A stretch of 20,000 nt of DNA from Microthyrium microscopicum (lineage: Eukaryota). The notes under the pieces were generated by a model. The model did not search any database, had not been told where the DNA came from, and was given only the letters and a program-made list of their open reading frames with translations. Below are positions 1 through 20,000 of this stretch, in pieces (position 1 is the first letter of the stretch; each line of letters begins with the position of its first letter). Made by a program: the position numbers and the translations under genes. The stretch spans positions 2,829,314-2,849,313 of the forward strand of contig MU004233.1 of assembly GCA_010405405.1 (NCBI GenBank). The letters run 5' to 3'.

Positions 1-1270
1 GCTTTCTAAAGATACTGACGCATCATGTCCAGACAAGAGGCCAACATTGATCGTATTGCCCACAGTGTGCTAACTTAGCAATAGCTACTAAGGCCTAAAT
101 CGACGGACGAGCAAGCGCATGGACGATCAAGATGGATGCCATCTCTTACCTCAGCGACCCAACAGCTTGGAACCATTAGTGAAGATTTTTGGGGGCAGTG
201 GAAAAAGGCTGAAGCATTTGATAGGTGTAGTTGCGATGTTGCAGTGCTGTTGTGCTTCCAGGGCGTCCGTGTCAACCGTTAAAAGCTAAGGAAGCTATGC
301 CCAGCTAGGTTAAGCGGATCAGGGGATTTAGCGGACGAGCTTGCATAGTCTCATGGAAGGGGACCAACAACTAGTGGCAAAGATGAATGGTCCAAAACAT
401 GGGCTTTCACGTTGGTGATACAGCACAAAGAGCGCATCCTAGAGCTCATGTTGTTGTTTGAGCTGCGCCGAGGGCGGCCACCAAATCCGGTGGTTGAGGT
501 CGAGTTGCATGGAATCGCCCGATAGTGGTTACACGACACCAGCAATCCAGAAGTCTGGCTGTATTTGCTACCGCGGCCTGCCTGTCGACTGGCCATGGCT
601 CTCGAGTTGATGCCGGTACCGCACGGGATGGTGTCCGTGGTTGCTACTCTCACGGCTTGGAGCAGCTAGATGGCGCCAGTTGAGGACTGATCAGGTTGCT
701 CTAGGACTCGAAAGGTCGACTCCGACAGGATGGTTTGTACAGAAGGATAACAATGAATGAAAAACAGCAAAGAGAAAAAGACAAGCGAGGTTGGGAGTGG
801 ACCAGACATCGATGTCGTCCTTGCACAAATAGTAGTGGCTCAGAGAGTCACTTTGATTGGCCACTAAGGGCCAGTTCTACGCCATGATCCATCCAACTAC
901 CGTACCGTACCTCTCCACCATCTGATCTGATCGCTACTTCCAGTCCTTCCCACTACTGATTCTGTTCAGGCCACGCAGGCTTGCTCTCACTGCATGATAC
1001 ATACATCTCGCCATCTCGTTACTGCTTGGCTGCCATGTGGGCCGTAGATCAAGAGGCCACGGTCGACAGTAGCATGGGCAAGGGATCCCGCTGCTGCTTG
1101 AGTACCTGCATTGTTCTCAGCTGCACATTGATCACCCACGTTCATTCAACGCTCTGATTGACCGATCGTCCCGTCTCTATCTATTTGCTATGTTCTACCC
1201 CGTCGGTCTTTCGACTCGCCGCGTCCACGTATTTCGGGTGGGTAGACGCTCTGAGACAGCGAGGCTGCCT

Positions 1271-1346
1271 GTAAGCACCCGATCGGAGAATATTCTGCGA
1301 CTTTCGTTGACCCACTCTCCTCTGTCTATGCTGAACCCCTATGCAG
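1271..1346 (+). other. Putative spliceosomal intron (76 nt) of an unannotated plus-strand transcript
   Basis: GTAAGC donor, pyrimidine-rich interior, GCTGAAC branch-like site at 1330, TGCAG acceptor. No long ORF is associated. Confidence 0.4.
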
Positions 1347-4300
1347 GTTTCCGATGGACAATGATGCGATCTTGCAGCGCCGAGTTCGGCTGGATGATCT
1401 GGATGTTTTGATTGCTTTGATGATGGAGTAATCGGGTTTCTGGAAAGCGCTTTCTACCAAACAAAAAGCAAACATCGAGTCTCCCGGTTTCACTGCATTC
1501 GCAACGGCGATTCGAGTCGCCGAACTGCAGACATATTTTGACTTTGTCGGTCCGGACCGTTTTGTTTACTTTTTATCCGTCGTAATGCACAGTTGCATTG
1601 ACCATTTTTTTCTCCTATCGACATTGATGCCATCCGCTCTGTCCTTGATCCAGTGCTTGGAACTTTCATAGAGTACGTGTCTATCCTGACATGTTTTCGA
1701 ATACGATGGGAAATATGGCATTTCTTCTTTAGCAGCGTCGATGAATACCATCGTCGTCTGTGGGCGGGTGCTTATTTGGTTTACCACTACGTTGGCGCCA
1801 CATCATGCTAGTCCATACTACCTTTCTAGAATACTTGTCATTGGCTGCCTGAGAAGAATATGTGGGTTGAAGATTTATCTTGTATCTTTACTACATATTG
1901 TTCCAACCACACCTCTCATCCCAAACTGATTTTCGACTGTCATTAATGATCATTAAACTTTATTGATGAAAAAGCAACCCTGGGTATCTTGGTACATCAA
2001 ACTTATCACGGAAGCACGGCAGCATAAGGCGCTGTGTAAGTATTCATTCTAGTTTCACAATGTAGAGCTACAAGTTCAGCCTTCTGCCAGTACCGTGGGC
2101 ATTCATACCATCAAGTCGGTATACTTGTCACAGGCGCAAAACGCTGATTTGATGCAAATTTCTCATTAAACCACATCATGCAACAGTTGACTGGCTGGGT
2201 CAAGTTCTTTGTTACATCAACTCGATCAGGAGAGGCTTCATGGGTGTGCTCAAAAAGCAAAATGGGCGGATTCTCATCACCCCAATTATTTAGCTCGAGC
2301 GTTGAATGTAACGTTTCTCTCCCGTGTGATATCCGGCCCTTTCGGCAGTATAGCACGTGGAATATATCGTTCTTTGGGGCCGAAAATTATAGCTCCACCT
2401 GCATACCAAATTTCGAACGTCTAGATCGCCCAATATGTAGCTGGAAATTCTGGAATAATAAAGTTTCTGGTAGTCTTCTCTGACGTTCGCATTAGCGTTC
2501 CATGCGGCATATATGCTGCCTATGCGAAGCTCATCAACACCTCTTCGATCACGATGTCGAAATACTACAGTGACATTCCAACCTTGACATCTACGACCAA
2601 AAAGTTTAAACCAAGGAGGTTCACAAACAAGCATTGCTAACTTAATCAAGCAAACTATCCAAAACTAGCCGGCACTAGAGACACAGTGTTTCTTAATATG
2701 GATATTATAGATCATACCCCTTTCGTCCTCCTGCCATCAGCAATCAGTCCCTGAAGATATGTTGTAGAGAACCATCACATCCAGAACAATCTGATCCATC
2801 GGTTACGCCGCATTCAACAGTGTCTTACTGCCAACCGCTGACACCACGTTTCAACCTCTTGAAGGATGAAGAGATCGAGCCCAGCCGGCCGGTTGAACGG
2901 CGACCAAGCTTAGACCTTGTGTTCTTATTGTTTGTCCAGACAAGCATTTTCAGAGCTACTGACTGGTCCCCAGATTATCGGGACGGATCGTCAGGCGAGA
3001 AGTTGGCACCAGAACGTATAGTACAGGTGTGCAACGCCCTGCCAGCTTCGGACAGTTTTCTCTTACTCTAAGCCCCTTTCGTCAGGCTATTTGCCAACTT
3101 GGCCTTTCTGGAGTTAGTTGAAGACCTTTTGCTCTTATCATGGCCCAGCTCTGTGCTATTGACCATGGATTTCTTAGAGTTCTAGACCTTGAAGTATTGC
3201 TCATTTTAAACATGGCCCTCCATGTTCAGGCTCCACCGGCCGTAAACGCCCGTCTGAACGCCCGTCTCGTGAATTGTAACATCATCCGATCTTCAACTCT
3301 CCTTGTGGTACATTACAATATGCCGGTTGAGTCCGACAATCAAACGGGCCCCAGCCTCCTTCTCCATGGGCAGAGATAGGCATCTCGTAATTATGCTGGG
3401 TTTCTGTATGTATGATCCCGCACAATTTCATTGCGTGAAAAGGCGTAAGATGCATTTCATCATGCAGATGGTCGGCGAGCTATTTTCCTGAATGAGTATT
3501 ATTCAAGTTCTTCCATGGCGGCGAGTTTGTGCAAGACTGCATATCTGCAATTATCCGGTGATTACAACGATTGCGTAGTCCTACTGTCTGACAAACAGCT
3601 GTGATCACAAACTCGTCGCCTTGTTTTGTGGATTGTGTGCGGAGAGCAGAAAATGATCTTCAGTTGGCAGAACTGCACGTCCGTGGGCTAATGGGAGTAA
3701 TGATGTAGTTATTAACACTATTGCTCAGGATCGAAGGGACTAGAGGATCTCCCATAGTCAAAGGGGAAAAATTCAGAGCCTGAGAGCCTTTATTGTCTTG
3801 TTGGTGAGCGCTATAGGTACGTGACGCCATAAGGCTGAGCGTAAGGCTGAGCACCGAATGCTGCACACCTGTCTCAAGATACTAGGATACTGCAAGTCAG
3901 AATAAGTCTGTAGCTTCTGAAAACCCAAATAAAAAGACTCCAAGTAATTAAATTCCCATATGCTGTTATTGTAAACATGTGTTTGCAAGATCAATGACTG
4001 GAAACGTATGAAAAACATAACTGGCGTACTGCCATTGGCTTCACTGGCTCACATTTGCTGTGCTCCGTGATCAACTTCTTTGATCCCATCAAATACGTAG
4101 ATATCAGGACTATTCATTGGATACGATGGACGAATAAGGGTGCTCTCATTATACACGGTGGTGGTCACTACCGTGGCAGATAGGAGGGCCCCATTTGTTG
4201 TCTGTTCATTGATTGTCGATAACGTCGATTCAATCTACCGAGATTTCTGCGGAATCAATAGTTTTAGGGAGTAATTTTGACATGTCGAGTCCCTTAGCGA

Positions 4301-4405
4301 AAAGAATTGTTACAGATATAAGCACTGCCTGGCCGTACTTAGTGCTATGGCACTCAATTAGCCTTGTGCTAACATGAGGCACATGAGTGCAGTACCATTG
4401 TTTGA

Positions 4406-5534
4406 CTAGCAATTAGCTACAACTGCTAAAGGAAGCCGTCTATGCATTCGTGAGATGAGTTCAACATAACTAGCTTCATTTTCCTGCGTGATCACTCCAT
4501 GCCGTACGAAGAAATCGACCATAACAGCAGCAGAATTAGTCTTGAACTCCTCGTTAGCCAAAGCTTGTTTGACTTCGTCCACTGACATGAGGTAGAATTG
4601 TTCCACTTCATCATCATTCGGCTTAAGCTCAAAATCTGCTGGTAACTCCATGTCATATAAGTAGAGTATCTCTGGCGAGATCAGATCCTTTTCTCTTCCA
4701 GACGGCGAGTCATACATGGTGATGTATGTCAACGTGCCAACAGATCTTAGGCGCTCGGCTACCATATTTCCTGGAATCGACGCTTCTTCCATTGCTTCAG
4801 CGGTAATGCATTGGACTGGATCATCAGATGCTTTGACTCCTGGAAAATTTCAGTACAAGTTTAAGATGTCGAAGCACAAGCGATCGAAACCCAAGAAGGC
4901 AGGTTGGGAGCCTTGTAGTGTGCTAGGAGCCTTCAAATGTTCTGGGAGGAGATTTGTACACGAGAGAATCTTACCTCCTGCTACTGTACTGTCCAGCTTT
5001 CCTGGATAGGTGAAAAGCTTCCTTGATCTGCGCGGCACCCAGATCTTGATACCTTCCGACGTCTGGACGTACGCCGTCATATGCGCTCCGCGAGCAACGA
5101 TGCCAAACAGAGCATGCGAGAATCTCTCTACATGACAGAAGTAATTTGCACCAACAATGCGATAGGGCTCACTATGCCGACGATGAAGAATCTCGAAGAG
5201 ATCATTGTCAATGGCGTCGCTAACAATAGTATCAAATGCAGAAACACAACTCTTTTCGAGGTCCGTGTCGTCAGAGACCACCAACTGGACCGTCGTTTTC
5301 GCATGATCGACGCTAAACGCGGAACTCCAGGGCATACGCTTCACAATCTCAGGTCGCATCATGCCATGAGGGCGCGTATCCTGTGGGAGATAGAGCTTAT
5401 AGAAGTCAGGCTGCTCATCGTAAGGGAATCTTGTCTCGCATCGTTAGCGCATGATTTACTGCTTGGCTAAGGATTGCTCACCGATCGCAGGCCTCGACTA
5501 GCTCCAAGTAAGACTTTCCAGGCTCTTTCTTCAT
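4406..5534 (-). CDS. Nudix hydrolase, YJR142W-like (thiamin pyrophosphokinase-related) family; 3 exons 5534-5482, 5429-4975, 4839-4406; 313 aa
   Basis: Splicing joins ORFs 4850..5362 and 4406..4792 with an upstream exon into one 942-nt frame: MKKEPGKSYLELVEACDRFPYDEQPDFYKLYLPQDTRPHGMMRPEIVKRMPW...FGIVARGAHMTAYV...IWVPRRS...TYPGKLDSTVAGG|VKASDDPVQCITAEAMEEASIP...PEILYLYDMELP...PNDDEVEQF...FKTNSAAVMVDFFVRHG. These motifs and the divergent Nudix box match my recollection of this fungal family. Both introns are GT-AG and restore the frame. Confidence 0.9.
4840..4974 (-). other. Intron 2 of Nudix gene (135 nt)
   Basis: GTAAGA donor, ACTGAA branch-like site, TTTTCCAG acceptor; removal rebuilds VAGG-VKASD..EAMEEA (Nudix box). 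Confidence 0.88.
5430..5481 (-). other. Intron 1 of Nudix gene (52 nt)
   Basis: GTGAGC donor, GCTAAC branch site, AAG acceptor; removal joins ACD-R-FPY in frame. Confidence 0.85.
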
Positions 5535-5969
5535 TTTTGCTTGCAGAGGTAGTGTGTTTGTTGAGAACTTGAGCAGAGTCTAGAGGTGAGTTTTAGGTTT
5601 CTCTAAGTGCGGCACGTTCCGCTCGGCTAGTGGACGCAGCCGTGATCAGCATGTCCATTGTTGTTGCAGGAGCAAACAGTGAAATTCCAAATCGAGGCCG
5701 AGTTGCGGTTCTGGACTCATGATGTATGACTAGCGGTGTAATTTTCAAGTTGAAAGTCGTGGCGGCGCTGATCTTTGGTAAGCTCCTTGCGGCGCCCATG
5801 AAATCTTATAAATAAAACCGCAGCGTCTCAGCCGCGGTCTTGCTGTCTTGTATTCTTAATTAGATATATAACGCATCGCCTGAGTGTCAAGCCGTACCAT
5901 GATGCGATGGTTCTCGCCAGCGCGTGCTTTTGCATGCGGCACTTCATGCAAAGGCTCTGAAGCTTCGCC

Positions 5970-6590
5970 TCATTTGGAAGACGTCTTGGTCTCAACCACC
6001 TCTTTGACGACCTTAGCAATCAAAGATTTCTCTACCATATGCCCTTCAAATGCCCCATCTGGCCTTGTGCAAGCCTTCATGACTTCTCCAATATTGACCT
6101 TATGTCCACTCGCGCTCAGCTCGTCCACAACCTTCTGAACAACGGCTCGCACCTCATGTTCGGTCATGACCTTGATATCGCCTGCATAGCCCTCCAGTAT
6201 ATTGAGCTCCTCCTCCTCCTTAGCAACCAGATCTTTGCGATCTGCCTCGTAGAATTCTTGTATCGATTGCCGTGTGGTGCCCATCTTCTTCTTTATTAAA
6301 GCCAGCAGCGCGAGATCATCATTGACTGGAGCGGCCGTCTTGGAGCTGTTTGTAATGTCTGCTAGGATTGCACGAAGTACGGTTAGGCGGGGTTTATCGC
6401 GAGCGCGCATTGCGGTCTTGAGGTCGTCGCGAAGTCGCGAAAGGAGGGTCGAGGGCGGCGCGTTTGTGGATGTTGAATATGATGATTTGCTCCATATTGT
6501 TTGGCGACTTGCCCTGGGAAGCTGACATAGGCGAAAAGTGATTAATGAGCAGAGAGTATGGCGGTATAAAACATGAGCGCGGGAAACCAT
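5970..6590 (-). CDS. AIM41: Altered inheritance of mitochondria protein 41 (GatB/YqeY domain), 206 aa, probably mitochondrial
   Basis: First ATG in the 5970..6677 frame is at 6590. The N-terminus is Arg/Ser/Leu-rich and lacks acidic residues (presequence-like), followed by YqeY motifs LLSRLRDDLKTAMRARDKPRLTVLRAILADI, EFYEADRKDLVAKEEEELNILEGY and NIGEVMK. Confidence 0.9.
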   Translation of the reverse strand: MVSRAHVLYRHTLCSLITFRLCQLPRASRQTIWSKSSYSTSTNAPPSTLLSRLRDDLKTAMRARDKPRLTVLRAILADITNSSKTAAPVNDDLALLALIKKKMGTTRQSIQEFYEADRKDLVAKEEEELNILEGYAGDIKVMTEHEVRAVVQKVVDELSASGHKVNIGEVMKACTRPDGAFEGHMVEKSLIAKVVKEVVETKTSSK

Positions 6591-7064
6591 AGTTGTTGGG
6601 ATGCTGAAAAAGCCAACGACGTGATCAATGAGGGTGATGGACGCTTGGTTATAGCAAAAGGAGAGTTTGCTTTTCAACTGAAACTCAAAGGAAGAAAGAG
6701 ATGAAAGAAATGGGACCTTGGAGATGTCCGCATTGAGCTTGTGAGCTTCATGATGTTTTTTGGATTAGACATGGAGCAAGTAGAAAACATGAGAAATCCA
6801 CGCTAGTGTGATTTGAACTTGATCTAACCGAATCAGGGGCTGTCAACCGGTGCATGTGAGGTCCTTGATTGGCCAGTCTAACTCTAGCCAGCCACACTAA
6901 CTCTGGAGATGGGATCCCTGCAAGTTCAACTTCAACTTCAACTCCAAGAAATTTTCTGCCACCACAAAAAAGTCCAACATCCCGTCAGTTCCGAAAAGAT
7001 CTCGCAGCGATTGCTCTCCAGCACGCGGCTAGCCCACTGCCATACACAGCACACAGTATCCATT
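6591..7064. promoter_or_regulatory. Short divergent intergenic region, a likely bidirectional promoter for AIM41 and MPP10
   Basis: Head-to-head genes with 474 bp between the likely start codons (318 bp if MPP10 starts at 6909). Inferred from gene layout only. Confidence 0.6.
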
Positions 7065-9182
7065 ATGGCCAAAGCTATTCAGACTCTCCCTTCGCATACA
7101 GCAGCCATCGACGCCCTCAAATCTACCCCACATGAATTTCTCCAACCCACTCCAGATTTACACTCCTCTTTCCTCGCGCTCTCCAAATATTACCTGGATC
7201 CAGTAGCCTCTGCCGTCAGTAACACTCAACTCGACCGCCTTAAGACTTCGCGCCAAAATCGCAAACGGAAGCGAAGAAATGGCGAGGATGAGGAGCCTGT
7301 TCTACGATTAAAGAGTGTGGTCACTCAAGGATTTGACGCACAACAAATATGGGAACAGGCACGTCGAATTGCTGCAGCTGTAGATGTCGAGGTGCAACGC
7401 GCGAACGAGATACAAGAAGCTCAGCTTGCAGAACTTGACTCGTCCTCTAAAGAGGATGAGCAGCAGTATGCGAATGGAACCATGTCGCTAGATGAAGAGT
7501 CGGAAGACGACGAAGGTGCAGAGGAATTAAGTGAGATGGATGAGGATGAGCCTGGGGATTTGGAGGACGATGATGCTCTCGAGGACTTGGATAACGAAGA
7601 TGAAGAAGAAGACTCGGACTCCGAGACAGAAGAGGTTCAAGCAAACGGCGGCATCCGCAAAACCGATAAATTTGGGCTCAACGATGGTTTCTTTTCTATT
7701 GATGATTTCAATCGAAGAACAGAAATGCTTGAGCAACAAGATTTTCAGGGCGACCAGGACTTTGATGCTGCCAGTGATGAAGAAGATATTGAATGGGATG
7801 CGGATCCTACTGGCATCGAAATTCTTGATGAACCACAGGCCAGGAAATCACGACATCATGATCTGAATGAGGACGACGAGGACGAAGATGACGAACTGGA
7901 TGATGAGGAGAATGGGCCTACGTTTGGCGATATGGATCTCTTTGCTGCAGAAGGAGAAAGCGAAGAAGATGACGACGACGATATAGAAGACGATGATGAT
8001 GGACCACAAGTCGAAAATCTCAAGTACTCTGACTTCTTCGAACCACCAGCTGGCGCAAGAGGCAAATCAAAGTCCAAAAAGCGAACTTTATCTAATGGCA
8101 ACAATGCTGAGGTTGCGATACTGGACGATGAAAACGACATGGAGCGCACAATGGAAGCTGTACATAGGGATTTGTTCTCAGAAGAGTCCGAACCTGAGGA
8201 TGACTCTGAAAGTGGTCAACCCGTCAATCTATCCACCCACGAGCGCCGCAAGGAAGTCATTCTCAAGCAAATCCGCGAACTCGAAGCAATAAATGTCTCC
8301 AAAAAGCCATGGGTTCTGTCCGGGGAAGCACGAGCATCAGACCGTCCTACCAATGCGCTTCTCGAGGAAGATTTAGATTTTGAACGCGCAGGAAAGCCAT
8401 TACCGGTCATCACAAAAGAGACTAGTGAAGAAATCGAAGCGCTCATCAAACGCCGCATTCTTGCGGGTGAGTTTGACGAGGTTCGCCGCCGAAGACCAGA
8501 TGAAGCTTTCACTTCAAATCTTGGAAGACGAGGTAGAGTCTTCGATGAAGATATTGATGCACCACGGAAAAAGGGTCTGGCTGAGGTCTACGAGGAAGAG
8601 CACCTCAAGCGTACTGACCCCAACTTTGTCGATCAGCGAACCGCGAAAGTCAAGAAAGAACACGCTGAGATTGAAGCAGCCTGGAAAGATGTTGCTCACA
8701 AGCTGGACTCTCTGGCCAGTTTCCGATACAGACCAAAACCAGCTGAGATGAACATTTCAGTCCGCACTGATGCTCCTGCCATGGCTCTTGAAGATGCCAG
8801 ACCCAGTGGTGTCGGTGGAGATATTGGCACCTTAGACCAACTGGCGCCACAGGAGATATTTGCTCCTGGTGATGTGAAAGAAAAGGGCAAAGTCGTGACT
8901 AGAGGCGGCGCTGTCATTGATCAGGTGGAGCTGACTCGCGAGGAGCGCAAGCGTAGACGACGCAGAGAAAAGGAGAGAGCGAAGAAGGCTGGTGGTCAGA
9001 AGGAAGATGTCAAGCCGGGCGGCAAGCCTGCTAATAAGAAGAGTGATGAGAAGAACCAAATTGCAGGCAACCTCAAGAAGGGAGGTGTTCAGATCATTGG
9101 AAAGAGAGGAGATCTGCGGGATGTTGAAGGCAATGAGGTATCTGAGGCTAAGAAAGCTACGACGGGCAGTTTTAAGCTTTGA
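7065..9182 (+). CDS. MPP10: U3 snoRNP / SSU processome protein Mpp10, single exon, about 705 aa (alternative in-frame ATG at 6909)
   Basis: Long ORF with acidic tracts and Mpp10 motifs: GFDAQQIWEQ, DKFGLNDGFFSIDDFN, LKYSDFFEPP, LSTHERR, KKPWVLSGEA..RPTNALLEEDLDFE, PVITKETSEEIEALIKRRI, LDSLASFRYRPKP, LAPQEIF, basic ELTREERKRRRRREKE and C-terminal SFKL. Confidence 0.95.
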   Translation: MAKAIQTLPSHTAAIDALKSTPHEFLQPTPDLHSSFLALSKYYLDPVASAVSNTQLDRLKTSRQNRKRKRRNGEDEEPVLRLKSVVTQGFDAQQIWEQARRIAAAVDVEVQRANEIQEAQLAELDSSSKEDEQQYANGTMSLDEESEDDEGAEELSEMDEDEPGDLEDDDALEDLDNEDEEEDSDSETEEVQANGGIRKTDKFGLNDGFFSIDDFNRRTEMLEQQDFQGDQDFDAASDEEDIEWDADPTGIEILDEPQARKSRHHDLNEDDEDEDDELDDEENGPTFGDMDLFAAEGESEEDDDDDIEDDDDGPQVENLKYSDFFEPPAGARGKSKSKKRTLSNGNNAEVAILDDENDMERTMEAVHRDLFSEESEPEDDSESGQPVNLSTHERRKEVILKQIRELEAINVSKKPWVLSGEARASDRPTNALLEEDLDFERAGKPLPVITKETSEEIEALIKRRILAGEFDEVRRRRPDEAFTSNLGRRGRVFDEDIDAPRKKGLAEVYEEEHLKRTDPNFVDQRTAKVKKEHAEIEAAWKDVAHKLDSLASFRYRPKPAEMNISVRTDAPAMALEDARPSGVGGDIGTLDQLAPQEIFAPGDVKEKGKVVTRGGAVIDQVELTREERKRRRRREKERAKKAGGQKEDVKPGGKPANKKSDEKNQIAGNLKKGGVQIIGKRGDLRDVEGNEVSEAKKATTGSFKL

Positions 9183-9562
9183 GATACACAAAGCATCTAC
9201 TATCCTCACTTTGCCATATCTGATAATCCACGATTCCATCCTCATTAACTCTCCCAGCTCGGAGTGATTTGAAAGTATTATGTTGCGAGAGAAGTATATA
9301 AGTACCTTTCTGAGTCTTACCATGAGAGCAATACGAGGTTGAAACACGCATTCGCTATCCACTGTCGCAGGAACAAGTTCGCACTATCATATCCGAGCCA
9401 TCAAGTGATGCGAGAGCTCACACACAAAAGGGTAATATCATTCCATATGGAGATTCAGGAAAATTAACACATTCCAAATCATATCTTCCCGCAATCTGTC
9501 AGGCACTGCATAATCATTTCAACAGCTTCAGTCGCCTTCTTAGCTTTATGAATACCTACCAT

Positions 9563-9585
9563 TATATATATATATATATATATAT
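9563..9585. repeat. (TA)11 microsatellite
   Basis: Perfect TA run read directly from the sequence. Confidence 0.95.
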
Positions 9586-12500
9586 TTCAGGTCGCTCGAT
9601 TGTATTCTTCGTTCAAAAATCAATGTGAAAGCCTCCGATAGCCCTGTTGGCAGCCGTCTGGAAGAGATCGTCACGAATGTAAATAACAGCAGACGGGAAA
9701 GACGAGAGTATAATGCTTCTACAGGACACCACGGTAAATATCGTCCTCGAGGCTGCTCAAGCCTCCATGCTATGTGCTGGTTGAAATACAACCTTGGAAG
9801 TGAGAGCCTCATATCCGACCACTATCTTCACCTATTCAAATCAACATGTTGGCACAATGAATGACCCACTCCCATCAGCCTCGTTGGCTCTTAGACGCTA
9901 CGCTCCTTTATCAAGTACTTTATTTGCCATGAAGGACGTACAGGTTCGACTGGTTTATCGAATTCAATGAGAAATATAGCACTCTTTGCTTAAAAACGTC
10001 CGTGGCAGCGATCAGAGTTGATTGGAGAACGCCATTTATTTTGCTATGCCGTTTTCAAATCTGCAAAGGCTCTTTCCAGGATGAGGATAGAACCTCTACG
10101 CATCCTAGGAATGCTAATGTCGGAGACTTGGTTGATGGGGGTCCGACAAGTGACAGAGGGCATCAGCTTCGCTAAACGAAAATTGGAGAGAAAAGAGAGC
10201 ATCATAAGGTTTGTTCTACATGGAGTGGTTGTCTTCTTCCTCCACTAGCAGCCTACATGGCAGCATAAACCTCTTTTGGAACGAAAATGCATGGTTCTAA
10301 TGCTGATAGGCTTACTCCATGGATATAGTGTAAGAAAAGCCACGGTATTGATCTTCATGAATAGTCGCTTCTTGAGTTTGCGCCTTATTGCGCAATATAC
10401 GAAGCGGCTCTTTTGTATCCAACACTACGGGTTCGATGCCATCAATCGCAAGTATGTCGCTATATTGTTCTCTCCTTTCAAGATTAAGGAGGCTCGTTGG
10501 GCGTAAACCTTATGCGAGATAAGTTTTGATCGCCACGGCAAAGGACCCGCCCTGGAATCCTTTCCCGATGAATATAGCATTGAAACGAACTTAATCTGAG
10601 TTTACGGGTAGATAATTACCCTCTTAGAACCACCGTCTTCGAGGAATTCACTTGGATGTGTGGTTACACAGAATAACTTTCAGAGACAAATTTATATTAG
10701 ATCTATCTCAGTCCCAGCCTGGCAAACAGGCATCCATCTCACCAGCCAGGGTGTTCTGCAGACTCGAGTGTCTAGGCTACCATAGCACCTCCTAATGTAG
10801 TATTAGAGAAATCGAAAAGAGAAAACTTCTTATTTGTATCCATGTTGTACCGCAATTGCGCAAAAGTCACGGTAACCTAGCATATTGTATACAAGGGAAG
10901 AACGGGCCGATCCGCTAGGGCGAATCCTACAGGCCCTTTGGGAAGGAGGTATAATATGTTTTGATATGACTGTCAATCAATAACCATCGTGCGAATTACG
11001 GGGTGCCGAGTAAGCGGCAGCGTGGGATGTAAGATACGATAGCAACTTGAACCAAGCGTCTGCCAGGTCGTAGAACGAGACAAGCGTCCGTATCTATCAA
11101 CAAAGGCATGTATGGGTGTGGGTGCGTGGCCTTTTGGTGTGGCAAAGGAGCACTGTAGCTGCGGCTCGGGTGTGGGTAAATGAGCGATATGAGCTGCATT
11201 TCTCCAGAGAATCCTATTTCCGGGGTATGATCTGAGCCTCTACGCGGAGAGGGCAATCAAGTCTTCGGCAGGCAAGGCTGAAACAGCATGGTCCGTCAGT
11301 TTGGTCTGGCAAATTGGACCGAGGGAGGCAACTAAAGGAGGAAATGGGTGTTTTCGGAGACCTCGGATCACAGACCTAGATGAGGGTGGGAGATTGTATA
11401 TCTCGGCAGTGTCGGGCCAGTTGAGTCTATATTATAGATGAGATTTCTTGGTGCGTTACCAGGCCTCTGGTGATGTACCTTGGCGATGGGGATGGCGTTG
11501 GTTTTTTAATGGTTCGGCAGAAGGCCTGTAACTGGCCAGGGCTTTGGCCGGCAATCATTCGGGGAGATGACTGGGGGGCCTCTCTATTAATGAATCTGAA
11601 TGCTTAGGTATGTTGATGGTCCGAGATTGTAGTCCTGCTTCCTCGGCATAGGATTAGCAACTGTGACTCGACGCCGAAGATGACGTTTTCTTTGGCTAGA
11701 GATGATGCAAACAGTCCTTTAATGACAGACTAAATGAGTACTTGAACATTTCGTTCGGTGTAAAGATAAGTTGTATCCAAATGCGAATGTATCTATGCTC
11801 GGTATTCTTAGTACATGTAGATGACTGTTATAAGGGCTCAGACACTCCAGTAGGCAGTGTAGCATGTTTGCAAAAATAGGTAGGATATGAAAGCCGCCTA
11901 GTGTTCGTCTAGATAGAATGATAACCATCCAGGGAACACGAAGCATTAGATGCTTCCGATTGTTCGCTCGCAAGGCTGGCGTGGACTACAGGGCTTTCGG
12001 TCTGCTTTGGGGCTCTACTGTCCTAAATAGGACGTTTGCCGATGCTCTGAACAGACCAGGTTTCCAGAAGGTGATGCGCACCTGGGAGCCGGCTTCTTGC
12101 GAGAAGCGACCGTGCCAGTGAGATTGACAAGTTGTTTGGGCTATAGAACGAGTCAACCAGGGGTATTGGTTTCGATACAGCTTCTAGAAGGTAGTGATGG
12201 TAGATCAGGATTCACAGCGCATGGTTGTCAGCAAGTGGACAAAATAAAAGAGACACTCCAAGTGACTGCGCTGTCTACCATCGCGCTTTGGAAAAAATGC
12301 CCGCTTCAATCACCAGCGCATTCGATGTGAAATAGCGCATTTGACTTGCGAGAGTACCAAGTTGAAGACGTAGCACTTGATGGGAGCCTGTCGTTTATTT
12401 TGTCGACACGTTGGTTGCATGCACAAACATCAAGGAGAAGAGAGGGCTTGCACGCTGACTCTCCGCGGCTCAAACCTCCTGGCGCACCGTTCCGCCCTAA

Positions 12501-14850
12501 TCCAAAAGGAGTGGGCAATATAGATGGCAGATCGCTCAGCCAGAACTGATAAGGGAGATGAAGGGGTTTATCCGCCAAGATTGCGACAGCTTGCATGTAC
12601 GTCGGTCGACATGTGGTTCCAGACAGACAAATACGATGTTTGCCATCACGAAAATTGTCGATTATTCGTGATTTCAATCAAAGATTAACCCAAGCTCTTT
12701 TGACGCAATACCGCCAGGAAAGTGGAGATGCGCTTTTACGGGCGCGAGATGAAGTGATAATGCTGCTGCTGCAAGTCATGTCGCAAAGCGTCATGCAGTT
12801 GCAGAATTGGGGACAATCTCCTGCGCAAAGCCGATGAAAGATTTCTGACAGCCGACTAACGCCTCTCATGTACATTGCTTGCTAACCTTTTCCTGGAAAT
12901 AAGACCTATAACGGTGTTGGAATATCGAGTTTTGGCTCGTGAAAGATAAAAAAAAAGTGTTTCCTATGAGGCTCGGCTTCTCCACAAATGATGCGTGCCA
13001 TCCAATCCTTCTCCGCGATTCAAACACATGGAGAACGCTTTTCAACCCCCACGGTAAGCCTTTTTTGATCGGCCTTGACAGAAGGCGGAGGTCCAAGCAG
13101 TCCGATGCCACCAAATTTGCGGCTGCTCTAAACCCCGGCAATGCTTCTGGCAGCCAGAGCCAAGAGGGTGTGGGATAATTAATACGGAGGATTCCTCAAT
13201 GAGGGCTGCCAACCCCCCTATCCTACCCCAGAGTTTCTTTTAAGGGTGAACTTCCTTAAGCTGGAGACGAGGCGATCATACATGCCAGGGAGGTTGTAAA
13301 CATCGGAGCCCTTGGATGCCAACGCCGACTCCTTCGTTTTGACTTGTCCTTTACGACGGGGCCCTGCTCTGCTGACCCTTAAAAATGTCTAGGTAATTTT
13401 AGCGTATATAGCGTGAGTTTAAGAGTACGCTAAGTATAGGCCTATGTATATAATATAGCTTATAAGGATAAGTAAGAAGTACTTAAACTTAAACTTAGTC
13501 TAGTATATTTAATTAAATTCTTAAGGAGCTTAGTATTATTTTAAGAGTCTTTTAAAGTATTATTCTAATATATATTCTTTAGTTTTATATAAGATAAATA
13601 TAGTAATATAGTATATACTAAGTATACTAATCTATATTATTTTTAACTACTACCTAGTTTATAATAACTAAGTAGTATTAAGTATTTATAAGATAGTATA
13701 TACTAAACTAAACTAAAAATATATTAAGTTAAACTAAAGAGTTAAAGATATATTTTATAATAAAAGCTTATAAGCTTAGTATATAATATTTAATATAAGT
13801 TTCTAAAAGTAATAAGTATAAAAGAATAATTAAAGCTTTAGAGTATTAGTTTATATTTAGAATATCTATTTTAAGAAGCTATAATAAGAAAGTAAGTATA
13901 GTATATACTAAATAATAAATATTAAATTTAAATAATTAAAACTTACTAAATAATTATTTATAAAAGTTAGTAAAGTAAGTATATACTTATTTAAAAAGTA
14001 CTATTTAAACTTTTATTATAAAAGTTTAGTATCTATAAGCTAAGCTTAAGTCTATTATAAAATCTCTTAAGCTATTTAACTTAACTTCTTTCTTTAATTT
14101 CTTCTATATTTTTTAATATACTTATTAGAAATTTATACTTTATTAGTTTATACTAATCTTAAACTATCTACTTACTTTCCTCTACGCCTTTAGCTTAGTC
14201 TTATTCTAAGTATAAGCTAAAGATATAGTAGTTTCTATAATTAATTAAGTATAGTTCTACTTAGTTACTATTTAAATAACGTAAAATCCTAATCCTACTT
14301 TTAGTATCTAAGCCTATAATAAGCTTAGTATATACTAGTAAATATTTAAAAACGTACTAATATAAATAGGTCTAATTATTAATCTTTATTTAGGCTATAT
14401 CCTACCTAATTTATAAAATTAAGCCTAATACGTACTAGCTATAAATTAACTTAGATAGCTTTTTATACTTCTAATTACTTATACGTATCTTTAAGTTATT
14501 ATAAGTTCTTTAAGTATACTCTAGCTAAGTTATCTTAAGATAGTATATTTTAAGCTAGTCTTATACTAAGTATAGGCTAATATAGAGATAGTCTAAGGCA
14601 ATATTCTACTAGGCTTTATTAATATAAACGTATAAATAAAAGTATAGGTTAAAATTAAACTATACTTAGTATATACTAATAATATAATAGTTACTAAGTT
14701 AAAAATAATTTTATAGCCTTAGGAGTAATATATAATTAAATTATTAAGAATAAAATAAGTATAAGTTTCTTTAGTATATATTTAATATAAATAGAACTAA
14801 TTAAAGAATTTAGATATATTATTATATTTATAAGACTTATTTTAATTATA

Positions 14851-15748
14851 GTAAGTTATAAGCTAGTCTTATACTAAGCTTATACTAACTTTATAGTAGT
14901 TAAATATAAATTAATTAAAAATACCTTAAAGCTAATACTAGCTTATATAGAATAGTAAGTTTAAGATTAAGTTATACTAAGTATATACTAACTTATTAAT
15001 ACTTTAGCCTACTAGATTCTTTAATATAGTTAAGATACTACCTAGTTTATAAATAAGCCTAGGTAAGTTTATATTATACTTAATATAGGCTAAATTAATA
15101 TTTTATAGCTATAGTCCTTATAGTAGTATAATTAAAAAAATTTATTAAGATACTAAGGATATTATATAAGTTATAATATTTTAAGCTAAGTACGTACTAA
15201 CTATAGAAGAGCTATTAACTATACCTTCTACTTAATTTATATTAGTTTTTTATTTTATTATTATCTAAACTATAGTTATAGCCTAAGACGTAAAGTAAGT
15301 TAATAGATCTTTCTACTTATAATAAGTATATACTAATTATATAATAGAAGGAAGATTCTTTAAAATCTACTTTACTAGCGTTAGGTAAGTTAATTTATAA
15401 GAACGTTAAGCTTAGTACGTACTAACTAATATATTAGTAGTACCTTTAGGACCTTTAGGACCTCTACTAGCACTAGATAAGTTATTCTAAGCTAGATTAA
15501 GCTTAGTACATACTAACTAATATATTAGTAGTACTACTAAGACTACTAGAATCTTTACTACTACTATATAAGTTATTTTACGCTAGATTAAGCTTAGTAT
15601 ATACTAACTAATATATTAATAGTATTTCTAAGACTTTTAGGACCTCTATTACTACTATATAAGTTATTCTAGACTAGATTAAGCTTAGTATATACTAACT
15701 ATTATAATAGTAGCTCTTTTAAAATCTTTACTACTACTTTTACTACCT
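14851..15748 (+). pseudogene. RIP-inactivated, intron-dense gene relic (about 9 intron-like units in 900 bp)
   Basis: Ordered donor/branch/acceptor units at 14851-14896, 14955-14999, 15063-15108, 15166-15206, 15295-15347, 15385-15437, 15477-15528, 15568-15619 and 15659-15710. Some donors read ATAAGT and some acceptors TAA, consistent with G-to-A mutation. Product unrecognisable. Confidence 0.55.
15385..15748 (+). repeat. Tandem repeat, 4 x 91 bp (52-nt intron-like segment plus 39-nt exon-like segment)
   Basis: CTTAGTAYRTACTAACTA starts at 15411, 15502, 15593 and 15684 (exact 91-nt period). Units share RTAAGTTA...TTAAGCTTAGTAYRTACTAACTA...TAR-TAG. The fourth exon-like segment is more diverged. 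Confidence 0.9.
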
Positions 15749-18700
15749 TTAGCGCTATATACTAGTTATAAGTAAAATTAAGTATAATAACTTATAGTAA
15801 ATATATACTAACTAGTAATTATAGTATCTAGATTTTATAAGTATAAGAGTAAGGTACCTATTATTTAAATTATAGCTTTAAAGTATCTACATTATAAGTT
15901 ATATTTAGCTTATATAAACCTTATATTAACTAAATTATTAAGAAACTTAGGCTTAAGTATAGTATATATTAAAAGTTATAGGAGTTTATTTTATTATTTA
16001 GCTAAGTAATATTAGTAAGTATAGGCTAAATATAGGTAAAAAGATTTATAATATTATAATTTATAAGTAATAAAATAAATATACTAGCTTATACTAAGTA
16101 GAAGTAGCTATATAATATAATAAGTAGTTAATAGTTTATTTATACTTAGCTTAGGCTAAATATAAAGAACTTAACTATAATTTTTTCTTAAACTAAGTAA
16201 CTTACTAAAATAAGATTATAATATTTAACTATAATATTTAAGTAAATAAGTATAATAATAGTAATTTAATATATACTATATATAAATATAGGTAATAGAA
16301 GTATTATAGTATAAAAAGATCTTATAGTAAATACTACTATATACTAATTATAGATAATATAAAGTAGTTTAAAGATTAAAATATATTTAACTTAGAGAAT
16401 AATTACTTTATATTAAGATAGTAACTTCTTTACTAGTACGTATATAGCTTATAGATATACTTTACTCTTTACCTTTTAACTAATCTAATAACTTAAAAAA
16501 TAATTATTATAATTTTCTACTTAAGTTAAAGGCATACTATATAAGGTTAAAACTTAAAATAAGTATATATCATATTATAAAAATAGTACTTATAACCTAA
16601 ATACTATTATAAGAATGTCTACTCTACTAATAAGTTTAGGCTATAGTAAGTATATACTAGCTATAACCTAATTAGTTATTTCTTACTCTCTAGCTTAATA
16701 GTAGTTAGGTAAGATTAAAGTTCTTATATTTAGTATATTATAAGTATATACTAATAGTCCTTTAGGATATATATATTATAATTATTTTATAATTACTACG
16801 CCTAGTTAAGTATATATTATACTTTTACTTAGCACGTACTATTAAAAACTAACCTCTAGCTTTATTACTATATTTATACTATATATTTAGGACTTTATAA
16901 AGTAGAAAGTATACTACCTAAGAATTACTTATATTTAAAATAAGCTAACGTTATACTAGTTAGTACTCCCTTTATAGCCTCTAGAATTTAATAAGTATAT
17001 TTAGCTAATATATATCTAGTATAGGCTAATTATAAATAGTTTTTATTAATTACTTTATAAACTAGTTCGTTAGCTAGATTAAGGCTTTAGCTTTACTAAA
17101 GACTATCCTCTATAAGATAAAATATATATAATTAGTATATACCTAGTATAGCCTCTCTAACATAGCATAATAGTCTAATAAATATAGAATTTATTCTTAA
17201 TATATACTATAAGTATTTAGGATATTTAAATAGCTTATTAATTTTATTAACTTAAATATAGTATATTATAACTTAATTTAGTATAGAGGTAGTATATATA
17301 CTAATTATAAAGTAGTTAATAAAATTCTTATTTACTAATAGCCTATGCTTAACTTATTTAACTTAGAGGTTTAATTAATAGCTTTAGTAGCGTTACTATA
17401 GTAAATATTAATATCTAGCCTTAATAATACGTATATAATATACGCTAACTAGACTAAAAGTAAACTTTATTTAAAGATAGTTCTATTTATATAGCTTAAT
17501 ATAGATAATAAGCTATGCTTAGTATATATATAATATAGTATAATAAATACTTTACTTCTACGTATTAAAGATATTACGTTTTCTTCTATAATAACTAGTA
17601 TATACTTATTATAGGCTAAAGCTAGACTTAAGATAAATAAGGTAATTTATAATAAACTATAACTTCTTTTTAAGTCTATAGCTTTTATATTAATTATAAA
17701 AGCTTAATAGATTAGTAGGTATATCTACTAATTATAGTAAATATTTCTTCTATATTAATATATAGTAGCTAATAGATCTTTATTTACGTATATAACGTAT
17801 CCTATACTTATTTTATTAAATAGTATTAGCTTACTTCTATATATATATATAATAATTAATCTTAAATTATTTACTTTAATTAGTACGTACTATACGTAAG
17901 ATTAATTTCTTTTTCTCTTTTAGTTTATATTAACTTTATAAAACCTTAAAAAGTAAAAATTTATATATTATACTTATACTTATTATTAGTATAATAATAA
18001 TCTATATAGGCTAAGCTTATATCTATAGTTTATTTAAAATATTACCTTTCTCTTACTTTTTTAACTATTCTATACCTTTAGCTTAAGCCTATCTTAAGTA
18101 TAATAACTACCTATCTTAATTTCTTAGCTTAAGCTAAAATTATATATAGCGTAGATTAATATTATAAGATCTTTAAGAACTTTCTTAGAAATATATATCT
18201 AAAATAAGAATATATTTATAGTAAGTTTAATACGTATTATAGCTTTTTCTACGTCTATACTAACGTTATACTTATAGATTTAATTAAATACTTAAATTCT
18301 AAATATGTCTTATTAATAAGTAAGTTTTTATATTAAGGCTATAGTTAGTACGTATTAAGCTTATAATAAGTAAAACTAATTATACTTTACTTAAGCTAAA
18401 TTAATAAGGTAGCTATAATAATTATAAAGAATAAAGTAATAATTATAATAGTATAGATATAGGCTTAGTATATATAAGAGCTATACTAACCTCTAAATAA
18501 AAAATAGTAAGCTTTTTACTAATTTAGTTAAGCTCTCTATAATTTTAAGCCTATAAGTTTAAGTACTATATAAAACTAGTATATACTAATTATAATCTAA
18601 ATAGCTATTAGTATATTAATAAGAAAGGTATAATCTATAGTTATATTATTAAGATATTTATAAGTATATATATACTTTGCTTATACTTAATTTATTATTA

Positions 18701-20000
18701 ATTAAGTAGCTTTACTACTACTATTAAGTTTAATACCCTAGCCTTAATAAGTTTACTTTACTTATATTTAGTACGTACTTATTCTTTATTAATAGCTAAA
18801 GATACTAAGTTATCTAACTAATTTACTATTAAGGTTAATACTTTCTATTAATAAGTATAATTTCTACTTAGGGCTTATATATACTAACTATATATAGTAT
18901 TTTTACCTTTATAATTCTAGTCTAAGATTAAAAATTCTAGTAGTTTATTAATAAGCTTAGGTAAGTATAGCCTATATATTATATATGCTAGACTAATATT
19001 AATAGTTATATTTATAATAATTCTCTAATCTTTAATATTTATAATAAGTTAAAAGATTTAGTATAAGTAAAATACTTATATAGGCTTAATATATACTAAA
19101 CTTAAGTAGAAAAAATAATTTTACCTTTTATAAACTTATTAGTACTTACTTATTTTATTACTATAAGCTTAGTTATATTAAGTTTATATATAGTATAAGT
19201 TAAACCTTTATTTAATTTAAGCTAAGTACATATTAATATTAATTTAATAAAGAGCTATTACTTTATCTTCTTCTTCTACTTCTAAATATAGTAAGTTTAA
19301 TAATTCTATATTAAGTATATACTAATACTATAAGTAGAGTCTAAAGATAATAAGATTATTACTTTATTACTTATCTATTTTTATAAAAGCTAAAGCTATA
19401 CTAAGCTTAAGGCTCCTCTAAAATTCTATTACTAAATATATACTAAGCCTAAGTCTCTTTTAAAATCCTATAGCTAAGCTTAAGTTAAGCATTATTATAA
19501 TAAGAAGTCTATAGCGCTAAAGAAGTATAAGGCCTTAACTTTAGTCTATACTAAGCTTAAGGCTAAGCCTAAGTATAAGTTAGCTAAGTATAAGCTAAAA
19601 GCTATTAGCTAGCATATTTTTAGTAAGTTTAAGTTCTATTATATAGAGTACGTATTAACTATAAAAGCCTAAATTATATTTAAAGGATATATCTAAGAAG
19701 CTAGAAATAAATTACTAATATATACTAAGGTTAGCTTTGCTATTAAGGAAGAAGATATTATTAATAATAAGTATATACTTAATACCTATAATCCTACTTT
19801 ATTATTATTTTAGTATAAGACTAATATTTAGGCTTAGTATATACTAGACCTAAATTTAGACTATTATAAAGTAAAAGATTTACTAGGCTAAGTATATACT
19901 TATTTTTATATAGTAGTTAAATTAAAACTATAGCCTTAGTATATACTAAAAAACCTATTTCTTTTTCTTTTATAAATTTTTATTCTTTAAGTAATCTAAA

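Follow-up and report, generated by a model that had tools for sequence, protein, structure and literature searches.

The 20,000-nucleotide stretch of contig MU004233.1 from Microthyrium microscopicum that was analysed here (the window) ends in AT-rich DNA through which a short, near-palindromic word recurs many times. This raises the question of what the recurrence records, an earlier note having considered an intron signature, a footprint of intron generation or an array of protein-binding sites. The Mpp10 protein places the source among the Ascomycota. The DNA concerned is a single block.

13385-20000, no strand assigned: RIP-saturated AT-rich repeat copy of a multi-copy family, extending past the window end (base composition, contig alignments)

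The block is in an advanced RIP state and belongs to a multi-copy family. Its GC content is 0.196 over positions 13385-20000 (range 0.15-0.23) with a sharp border, where GC drops from 0.48 to 0.15 at ∼13400-13500, and its 6615 dinucleotides include 12 CA and 10 TG, with TA at an observed/expected ratio of 1.54. This depletion of CpA/TpG and excess of TpA is confined to the sharply bordered block, which is repeated in the genome in copies that diverge mainly by C-to-T and G-to-A transitions. Contigs from the source runs match it at 80-95% and differ from it by almost nothing but transitions; in run X1, 237 of 313 aligned contig pieces are <99% alike, with 727 transitions (A>G 147, C>T 223, G>A 135 and T>C 222) against 31 transversions, and depth is 300-650 on the block compared with 112 on the single-copy flank. 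Variable places number ∼790, 40 of them listed individually. Runs X5 and X6, from a second organism, contain only small pieces and were left out of account. RIP-degraded repeat families occupy AT-rich blocks (isochores) in Pezizomycotina genomes, and the block resembles them in its abrupt switch of GC (0.48 to 0.15-0.23), the near disappearance of CA and TG, the TA excess, its multiple copies and their transition differences. It differs from them in that one palindrome of 8-10 bp dominates the word statistics (z of 12-15) and in that no retroelement or transposase remnant was found in it.

The repeat is apparently non-coding. A six-frame Pfam search of the block with stops read as X gave no family at E up to 1, and remnants of an LTR retrotransposon (reverse transcriptase, RNase H, integrase, gag) were not found in the block, where GC is lower than in L036, an unrelated RIP-saturated retroelement contig, and the signal could have been lost; the same search on L036 weakly detected RT_RNaseH remnants (E of 2.4e-4). 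Period-3 power in 12 windows of the block was 0.3-2.5 with a mean of ∼1.2 (null mean 0.76, 99th percentile 2.43), where RIP at GC 0.20 may have erased a coding signal, compared with 10.7 in L036 and 22 in host genes. Rfam gave no match to the block at E up to 1 and a tRNA scan gave none. We also considered a hairpin or cruciform and rejected it, as the folding energies of six motif copies with their flanks (-1.2 to -3.3 kcal/mol, z of +0.6 to -0.8) are no better than those of shuffles and reveal no stable hairpin.

The recurrence itself stands. The exact pattern TTAGTAYRTACTAA occurs six times (14666, 15412, 15503, 15594, 15685 and 19936), whereas 200 window shuffles give 0.00, and with up to one, two and three mismatches there are 23, 43 and 73 matches, where 100 order-3 Markov replicas of the block give 0.79, 6.6 and 31.8. 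The core GTAYRTAC is found 25 times, compared with 1.18, 1.46 and 2.47 when the block itself is shuffled with 2-, 3- and 4-letter words preserved (300 shuffles per word length, maxima 5, 5 and 7), so that none of the 900 shuffles reaches the observed count; if the three extra copies of a tandem array are dropped, ∼22 cores remain against 1-2.5. GTAYRTAC is the top 8-mer of the block (z of 12), and against an order-3 model GTATATAC and AGTATATACT reach z of 12.2 and 15. All 14 coordinates given in the earlier note fall among the sites with 0-2 mismatches, and the shuffle control that it proposed, with 2- and 3-letter words kept, places the motif far above composition. Its spacing of 100-150 bp is correct as an average, since the 43 sites lie 151 bp apart in the mean (median ∼105), but not as a rule, the range being 11-425 bp with no periodicity (best Rayleigh R of 0.18 against a null mean of 0.186).

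What is enriched is this word in particular. G(TA)3C occurs 20 times and the motif's internal spacing is specific, because G-TATA-C, that is G(TA)2C, occurs only three times and G-TATATATA-C, that is G(TA)4C, once; likewise, AGTA-N2-TACT is found 26 times compared with 1-9 at every other spacing from 0 to 20. Within the block neither TATATA alone (91 against 81-96) nor palindromes in general (175 8-mers against 160) are enriched. The motif is specific to the block: the host part of the window lacks it, with one relaxed core (12593), no GCACGTGC and one CACGTG (2354). Information content falls to about zero outside positions -8 to +13, and the symmetry ends at ∼14 bp, a C being present at -4 in 12 of 26 sites and the matching G at +11 in two. 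Individual copies are as follows; they have no strand assigned and come from the mismatch scan unless stated otherwise.

13608-13621: motif copy ATAGTATATACTAA, one mismatch
13693-13706: motif copy ATAGTATATACTAA, one mismatch
13898-13911: motif copy ATAGTATATACTAA, one mismatch
14143-14156: motif copy TTAGTTTATACTAA, the one mismatch a transversion within the core
14325-14338: motif copy TTAGTATATACTAG, one mismatch
14666-14679: exact copy TTAGTATATACTAA (exact and mismatch scans)
14978-14991: motif copy TAAGTATATACTAA, one mismatch
15187-15200: motif copy TAAGTACGTACTAA, CG centre, paired with the decayed copy at 19086 (also internal alignment)
15323-15336: motif copy TAAGTATATACTAA, one mismatch
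15412-15425: exact copy TTAGTACGTACTAA, first of the tandem copies, centre CG (exact scan, core list)
15503-15516: exact copy TTAGTACATACTAA, second of the tandem copies, centre CA (exact scan, core list)
15594-15607: exact copy TTAGTATATACTAA, third of the tandem copies (exact scan, core list)
15685-15698: exact copy TTAGTATATACTAA, fourth of the tandem copies, with C and G at 15691-15692 in a paralogous contig (exact scan, contig alignment)
16741-16754: motif copy TAAGTATATACTAA, one mismatch
16829-16842: motif copy TTAGCACGTACTAT, the sole core with CA left in its left step (core list, CpG survey)
17880-17893: motif copy TTAGTACGTACTAT, CG centre (also core list)
18345-18358: half-decayed copy TTAGTACGTATTAA, with T for the last C and AAGCTT to the right (also 91-bp unit profile)
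18576-18589: motif copy CTAGTATATACTAA, one mismatch
18768-18781: motif copy TTAGTACGTACTTA, CG centre (also core list)
19086-19099: decayed copy TTAATATATACTAA, G changed to A (also internal alignment)
19312-19325: motif copy TAAGTATATACTAA, one mismatch
19541-19554: motif copy TTAGTCTATACTAA, AAGCTT to the right, module in opposite orientation (also 91-bp unit profile)
19834-19847: motif copy TTAGTATATACTAG, one mismatch
19936-19949: exact copy TTAGTATATACTAA (exact and mismatch scans)

The centre of these copies preserves their history. Of 26 cores, 5 retain CG and one has CA, although CG makes up 0.6% of the dinucleotides of the block, and 14 of its 38 CpG sit in TACGTA. Along the four tandem copies the centre runs CG, CA, TA, TA; the internal paralogues at 15187 and 19086 read TAAGTACGTACTAA and TTAATATATACTAA; and a 338-bp paralogous contig (15588-15925) shows C and G in place of the window's T and A at 15691-15692. 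The CG centre is thus ancestral, and the motif, which is older than RIP, is a property of the family. This bears out the earlier proposal that reversing RIP leads to a CpG-centred ancestor, and the mutational series described for 16831, 15414 and 15505 is as stated. The membership of TATATGCT (18982) in that series is doubtful, as it pairs with another recurrent word, TATAGGCTAA, in the only internal alignment. The outer steps are less tractable: GCACGT is kept only at 16829-16842, the other present copies being TACGTA or TATATA; the sole evidence for the left step is the CA that survives at 16833, and on the right no intact core has TG. The sequence is compatible with GCACGTGC, but CA and TG, and at a slower rate CG, all become TA under RIP, so that the ancestral outer steps have no unique reconstruction; GCACGTGC, GCACGCAC, GTACGTAC and others all give the same RIP product. 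The exact ancestor that had been proposed, YAGCACGTGCTRA, is compatible with the data, and the CA at 16833 backs its left step, but it is one of several words that would end in the same product.

We consider it most likely that the recurrence is the fossil of a site carried many times by a once-active repeat, not an intron signal, and that the motif as it stands today is a relic without function. Before RIP, the family would have borne ∼40 dispersed copies of a short word, with a core of 10-12 bp, or up to ∼20 bp if the common left flank AAGCTTAG is included, and an ACGT centre of the form A-G-(Y-R)-C-G-(Y-R)-C-T, compatible with AGCACGTGCT. Local tandem duplication, with units of 91, 42 and ∼21 bp, would have amplified some of these copies. 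In the active element the word may have served as a reiterated cis-acting site, for instance a putative binding site for a dimeric protein. On both strands, RIP would then have turned CA and TG into TA, and CG likewise but more slowly, until all variants converged on the AT-only palindrome AGTATATACT, whose G and C would survive because they stand in ApG and CpT, contexts that RIP spares here. What the data show is the enrichment, its restriction to this block, the RIP state, the multi-copy family and the CG centre; that the ancestral copies were functional sites, and that a protein of this type bound them, is what we infer. For the reading as a whole, one apparently non-coding, RIP-saturated copy of a multi-copy ascomycete family whose motif is the remnant of a reiterated ACGT-centred site, we put the chances at about even.

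The alternative that survives best is that duplication did everything, and that short tandem or segmental duplications, with satellite-like growth, spread a functionless word now recognisable merely as a RIP end state. Some copies clearly did arise by plain local duplication, in the arrays below.

15406-15713, + strand: 91-bp tandem array of 3.4 copies, units opening with the module TTAAGCTTAGTAYRTACTAAC, centres CG, CA, TA and TA (TRF, nhmmer)
19390-19471, + strand: 42-bp tandem duplication with two degenerate motif copies (TRF)

The 91-bp array (TRF score 441, 85% matches; nhmmer E of 4.5e-26 to 2.6e-19 for its four copies) holds four of the six exact motif copies. The 42-bp duplication (period 42, 2.0 copies, 82% matches) contributes site 19433 to the two-mismatch list, and TRF also finds 21/22-bp tandem duplications. 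Duplication is further favoured by one 245-bp internal pair that rises above noise (86.9 bits, the replicas reaching 73.4 at most) and by an excess of weak self-matches (30 compared with 3-14 at ≥40 bits). Beyond the 91-bp array and that pair, self-BLAST remains at the level of Markov replicas. Self-similarity at a distance of 11 bases (z of 6) was considered as a separate feature and set aside: identity is 0.434 where the motif is touched and 0.365 elsewhere (0.343 expected), and it mostly reflects how the module is put together, with CTAACTA coming 11 bases after CTTAGTA.

Outside the array, however, the 91-bp profile matches the block only through its motif end, the first 20-43 positions, and there the ∼20-bp module occurs in both orientations; neither this profile nor an alignment anchored on TATAGGCTAA yields a longer common unit. 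The flanks carry about zero information and the spacing is aperiodic, and only 15406-15713 (91 bp × 3.4) and a few two-copy arrays have the form of a satellite. Random decay, moreover, should wear the core as fast as the flanks, since both have equally reached the RIP end state. Most copies sit in unlike flanks, as would be expected of a reiterated cis-acting site rather than of plain duplication, and we regard duplication by itself as a minority possibility, if one of some substance.

Still less probable, in our judgement, is that the AT-only palindrome works today, as a predicted array of sites that a dimeric protein would bind within AT-rich heterochromatin, for instance at a centromere or another structural domain. 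The core is sharp, symmetric, ∼10-12 bp long and dense (∼1 per 150 bp), as a working site would be, but the copies are still decaying by RIP-type changes (the GTATATAT and ATATATAC forms, with two mismatches in 20 of the 43 sites), and no single sequence is kept, because the centre varies between CG, CA and TA.

Insertion or gene conversion could instead have spread a tiny palindromic module once RIP had acted, the module being too short for RIP to recognise; copies in unlike flanks and a ∼20-bp module in both orientations would fit, and yet this is very unlikely. Inside the copies there is a RIP-type series (CG to CA to TA in the array), and the site is common to paralogues; at least part of RIP therefore came after the copies. 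Furthermore, of the 36 indels between paralogues the 12 listed are all 3 bases or shorter, and the listed flanks show no consistent target-site duplication as a direct repeat in the three bases either side of the core. Inverted ends as in a MITE are likewise missing, the symmetry stopping at ∼14 bp.

The intron reading, in which the right half of the motif is or used to be a branch site, with the element tied to intron gain, is not supported, and we assign it a very slight probability. TACTAAC is the textbook branch-site word, and it is found 11 times on the + strand and three on the - strand; GTAAGT is similarly skewed (14 against 4), and intron-like strings on the + strand number 18 where 7.5 ± 3.1 are expected. 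This last count, however, takes in the motif's own words, GTAAGT has no preferred distance to the motif, and there is no room for an intron because the donor-like and branch-like halves abut. The symmetrical, proliferating stwintrons of Hypoxylaceae, as described in PMC8469720, are introns of 90-200 nt inside genes, with inverted ends of 45-55 nt and a different palindrome, WTTCTAGAAA. The block shares with these and with introner-like elements a repeated sequence, internal symmetry and words resembling splice signals; here, in contrast to those introns, a 14-bp word lies in RIP DNA with no detectable gene, its donor- and branch-like halves adjoining.

Finally, the motif might be a by-product of composition or of the sequence preference of RIP, to be expected in any saturated block and built, as it is, solely of RIP end-state dinucleotides (TA, AG and CT); in the block, most G come directly after an A (529 AG) and most C directly before a T (547 CT). 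Saturating RIP simulated on the 13.4-kb host part gave 0-1 copies, and on Markov sequence (500 kb) the yield was 0.16-0.93 per 6.6 kb. L036 (14.7 kb, GC 0.25), a metagenome contig from another organism chosen because it holds two cores, has four cores where 3.1 are expected, and its top 8-mer reaches a z of 5.9; the unrelated-RIP control consists of this one foreign contig and simulation. A metagenome scan for motif pairs returned at least 117 stretches, and most of the 112 loci examined are minisatellites or chance matches. Only L036, L065 and the short L079 among them are RIP-like, and these three show no kinship to the block beyond BLAST matches at noise level; the motif copies of L065 belong to a 35-bp satellite. 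A scan of viral contigs for the exact 14-mer gave at least 115 stretches; the 114 loci examined hold mostly single matches, ten of them having 3-5 cores in up to 10 kb, and none is RIP-like. The motif is not a general RIP product: shuffles up to 4-letter words, simulated RIP and L036 give ∼1-3 copies rather than 25, and G(TA)3C outnumbers its shorter and longer forms, so this explanation is refuted as far as these controls reach and retains hardly any credibility.

The probable fossil of a reiterated site can be set beside known systems. Plant DNA transposons such as En/Spm and Ac carry arrays of short transposase-binding motifs in subterminal regions, a few hundred bases beside their ends. 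The block is alike in holding many copies of a word of 10-12 bp, in both orientations, in the otherwise unrelated sequence of one element; it differs in that its copies span at least 6.6 kb and in that no end, inverted terminal repeat or transposase was found. Palindromes with an ACGT core, the E-box/G-box CACGTG and the A-box TACGTA, are bound by dimeric bHLH and bZIP proteins. The probable ancestral centre here is likewise ACGT, set in a symmetric 8-10-mer, and GCACGT persists in one copy; most present copies, however, are TATATA, and the ancestral outer bases are not recoverable. Six metagenome contigs (L006, L009, L012, L052, L063 and L078) contain minisatellites of AGTAYRTACT-type units of 9-14 bp, which belong to the same 10-mer family with CG, TG/CA and TA centres. 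Those units are head to tail in DNA that is not RIP-like ((CA+TG)/(AC+GT) of 0.87-1.06), whereas the copies in the window are single and dispersed. Among the matches listed, the literature holds no description of this word or of a palindrome array in RIP DNA. The family could be of an undescribed kind, a long non-coding fungal repeat with dense GCACGTGC-type sites (∼1 per 150 bp over >6.6 kb) for a dimeric protein, possibly linked to centromere or heterochromatin, although we hold this to be improbable.

RIP blocks are usually dismissed as featureless, and here one short word stands out as a clear statistical signal. The locus illustrates that different ancestral words can end, under RIP, as one and the same palindrome, and that the change can be dated by the CpG that survive. 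Should the motif prove to be duplication debris, the lesson would be one of caution, in that motifs in RIP DNA need block shuffles, RIP simulation and an unrelated RIP control first. If the ancestral binding site is true, the repeat family would have been organised around a protein-binding array, which would offer a handle on what seeded the AT-rich block.

GC content falls from ∼0.48 to 0.15-0.23 at ∼13385-13500 and stays low to the end of the window. The dinucleotides of this AT-rich block (13385-20000) carry the signature of saturated RIP (repeat-induced point mutation), with only 12 CA and 10 TG among 6615, TA at 1.54 times expectation, G mostly after A (AG, n = 529) and C mostly before T (CT, n = 547). 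The GC-normal host part to the left contains ordinary genes for a YqeY-like protein and Mpp10, the nearest protein clusters to the latter being from Ascomycota. When contigs of the sequencing runs containing the window were aligned to positions 10001-20000 at ≥80% likeness, summed depth was 112 on the single-copy flank compared with 300-650 over the block, 237 of 313 aligned pieces were <99% alike, and the differences in run X1 comprised 727 transitions and 31 transversions. The excess depth, the divergent pieces and the dominance of transitions identify the block as one member of a RIP-mutated family with many copies. None of the matches listed in the metagenome and viral scans was a relative. 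Similarity within the block is like that within Markov replicas except for a 91-bp array and one 245-bp pair. No coding remnant was detected: six-frame Pfam scans of the block, in which stops were treated as X, found no match at E up to 1, and Rfam and tRNA matches there were likewise nil. Period-3 power in the block (0.3-2.5) is at or near the null (99th percentile, 2.43), compared with 22 for host genes and up to 10.7 for L036, an unrelated RIP-saturated metagenome contig of 14.7 kb (1-14759; GC 0.25, CA+TG index 0.04), where the still clear periodicity indicates that codon periodicity can survive saturating RIP.

The same alignments gave low-depth pieces (2-4) from runs X5 and X6, labelled as a second organism, that are identical to the genes and the RIP block, together with pieces of high depth that match the AT-rich part incompletely; this pattern may reflect mixed samples or a close relative. 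At 10001-10053 the summed depth is very high (2613 in X1 and 38223 in X3, versus 112 and 854 beside it) and many contigs stop or diverge at 10011-10053, so that this segment looks like a short dispersed repeat within otherwise single-copy, GC-normal DNA. A (TA)n microsatellite of ∼24 bases at 9563-9586 gives the strongest k-mer signal in the GC-normal host part.

The near-palindrome TTAGTAYRTACTAA recurs in the block, as had been claimed from the sequence alone, and does so far above chance. Six copies are exact, and allowing up to one, two and three mismatches yields 23, 43 and 73 matches, where order-3 Markov replicas of the block give 0.79, 6.6 and 31.8. Its core, GTAYRTAC, is present 25 times, compared with 1.2, 1.5 and 2.5 in shuffles keeping 2-, 3- and 4-letter word counts, and none of 900 shuffles reached 25. 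Among the 8-mers of the block GTATATAC is the most over-represented (20 versus 2.15, z 12.2), and among the 10-mers AGTATATACT ranks first (19 versus 1.38, z 15). The signal is specific to spacing: G(TA)3C has 20 occurrences, compared with 3 for G(TA)2C and 1 for G(TA)4C, and AGTA-N2-TACT has 26 versus 1-9 at every other spacing; neither TATATA alone nor palindromes in general are enriched in the block. One local feature contributes to the exact copies:

15406-15713: 91-bp tandem array, holding four of the six exact motif copies

The excess is still ∼10-fold once the extra copies of this array are removed. Across the 43 sites with up to two mismatches the mean spacing is 151 bp, so the recurrence every 100-150 bp given in the earlier note holds as an average but not as a regular spacing, because intervals range from 11 to 425 bp and show no periodicity.

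As far as tested, the motif is not a by-product of RIP, the control consisting of simulation and one foreign contig. Saturating in silico RIP produced 0-1 cores in the 13.4-kb host part and 0.16-0.93 GTATATAC per 6.6 kb in 500 kb of Markov sequence. L036, which from its RIP saturation and weak RT_RNaseH remnants (E 2.4e-4) is a RIP-mutated retroelement of LTR type, served as the kind of control the earlier note had proposed; it holds 4 cores versus 3.1 expected, despite selection for holding two, and its top 8-mer reaches a z of only 5.9, so that this one contig from another organism shows no enrichment.

The conserved part of the motif reads A-G-T-A-(TA or CG)-T-A-C-T, with weaker information to the left (TA.RCTTA) and right (TAAYTA), none past about -8 and +13, and a frequent longer form, AAGCTTAGTAYRTACTAAC. 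Most copies share an orientation, since a GC(T)TWA flank lies to the left in 12 of 43 sites and to the right in 3. A profile of the 91-bp unit matches outside the array solely to its first 20-43 positions, and hence this module, the motif with its common left flank, recurs in dissimilar surroundings. Folding argues against a structural role, the six copies examined being no more stable than shuffled sequence. Self-identity of the block at lag 11 is 0.378 versus 0.343 (z ∼6, in both halves), being highest where the comparison touches the motif (0.434; 0.365 elsewhere), and TRF reports 14 short period-11 arrays. After masking of the main motif, two further words recur: TATAGGCTAA (6 versus 0.97; at 14571, 15084, 16020, 17020, 17610 and 18005) and AGTAAGTTTAA (4 versus 0.23; within 14940-19620). 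Several occurrences of TATAGGCTAA or its variants (16151, 18982) lie upstream of a copy of the main motif, at a distance of ∼95-115 bp, but no longer unit common to the two could be aligned. The word TATATGCT at 18982, which had been listed alongside the mutational series of the motif, aligns with this other word, TATAGGCTAA.

Because RIP changes are limited to C-to-T and G-to-A, a CG can only be ancestral, and several lines show that the motif is older than RIP, belongs to the family and, as the earlier note had deduced, was CG-centred. The core centre is CG in 5 of 26 cases and CA in 1; 14 of the 38 CG in the block lie within TACGTA, and at least four more are in half-decayed copies (AGTACGTAT three times, ATACGTACT once). 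The four tandem copies have the centres CG, CA, TA and TA, a paralogous 338-bp contig covering 15588-15925 has C and G at 15691-15692 (among the 40 of ∼790 variable places listed), and the internal pair at 15187 and 19086 reads TAAGTACGTACTAA versus TTAATATATACTAA. The two outer steps were probably CA, TG or TA, since they are TA in 51 of 52 instances and CG in none; the copy at 16829 retains CA on the left. As RIP turns CA and TG alike into TA, GCACGTGC, GCACGCAC, GTACGTAC and others are all possible ancestors. The proposed ancestor YAGCACGTGCTRA is therefore compatible with the copies and right in its centre, but not unique in its outer steps, and the present symmetry may be partly made by RIP. 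Of the surviving CA/TG in the block, 12 of 22 are in a GCA/TGC context, a hint of resistance to RIP in this context in this fungus, as if G before C protects. Among metagenome contigs scanned for motif pairs, L006, L009, L012, L052, L063 and L078 contain minisatellites of AGTAYRTACT-type units (9-14 bp) in which the centres are a mixture of CG, TG/CA and TA; these contigs, unlike the block, are not RIP-like. The partly RIP-like contig L065 has at 3700-4350 a ∼35-bp satellite with a unit near CTATTTAGGAGTATATACTATAGGGTAATAATAGGG, adjoining DNA of GC 0.09-0.11.

We consider pure duplication debris an unlikely source of the copies: random decay should erode core and flanks alike, and a sharp core among dissimilar flanks favours a reiterated cis-acting site instead. 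That the sites still work in heterochromatin is improbable, and spread of a small module after RIP is more improbable still. An intron signature, including the branch-site link drawn previously, is very hard to sustain, because the donor-like and branch-like halves adjoin directly, GTAAGT keeps no preferred distance to the motif and no gene is apparent in the block; the symmetrical proliferating introns of Hypoxylaceae, in the available portions of PMC8469720, have a different palindrome and sit within genes. Splice-like words are strand-biased in the block (GTAAGT, 14 on + versus 4 on -; TACTAAC, 11 versus 3, with 4 of the 11 inside the tandem array), which suggests that the ancestral sequence had polarity. 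An artefact of composition is scarcely credible given the shuffles.

We judge the chances about even that an ancestor with a reiterated ACGT-centred site survives here as a RIP fossil. The active ancestor would have carried an ACGT-centred word of 10-12 bp at some forty places, local tandem duplication would have multiplied some of these copies, and RIP would then have fixed every variant in a single AT-only end state, the motif of today being its fossil. In the portions of the literature available to us we found no account of this word or of palindrome arrays in RIP DNA. The block is thus of a known kind, a RIP-mutated repeat, and its unusual feature is a dense, family-specific palindromic word.
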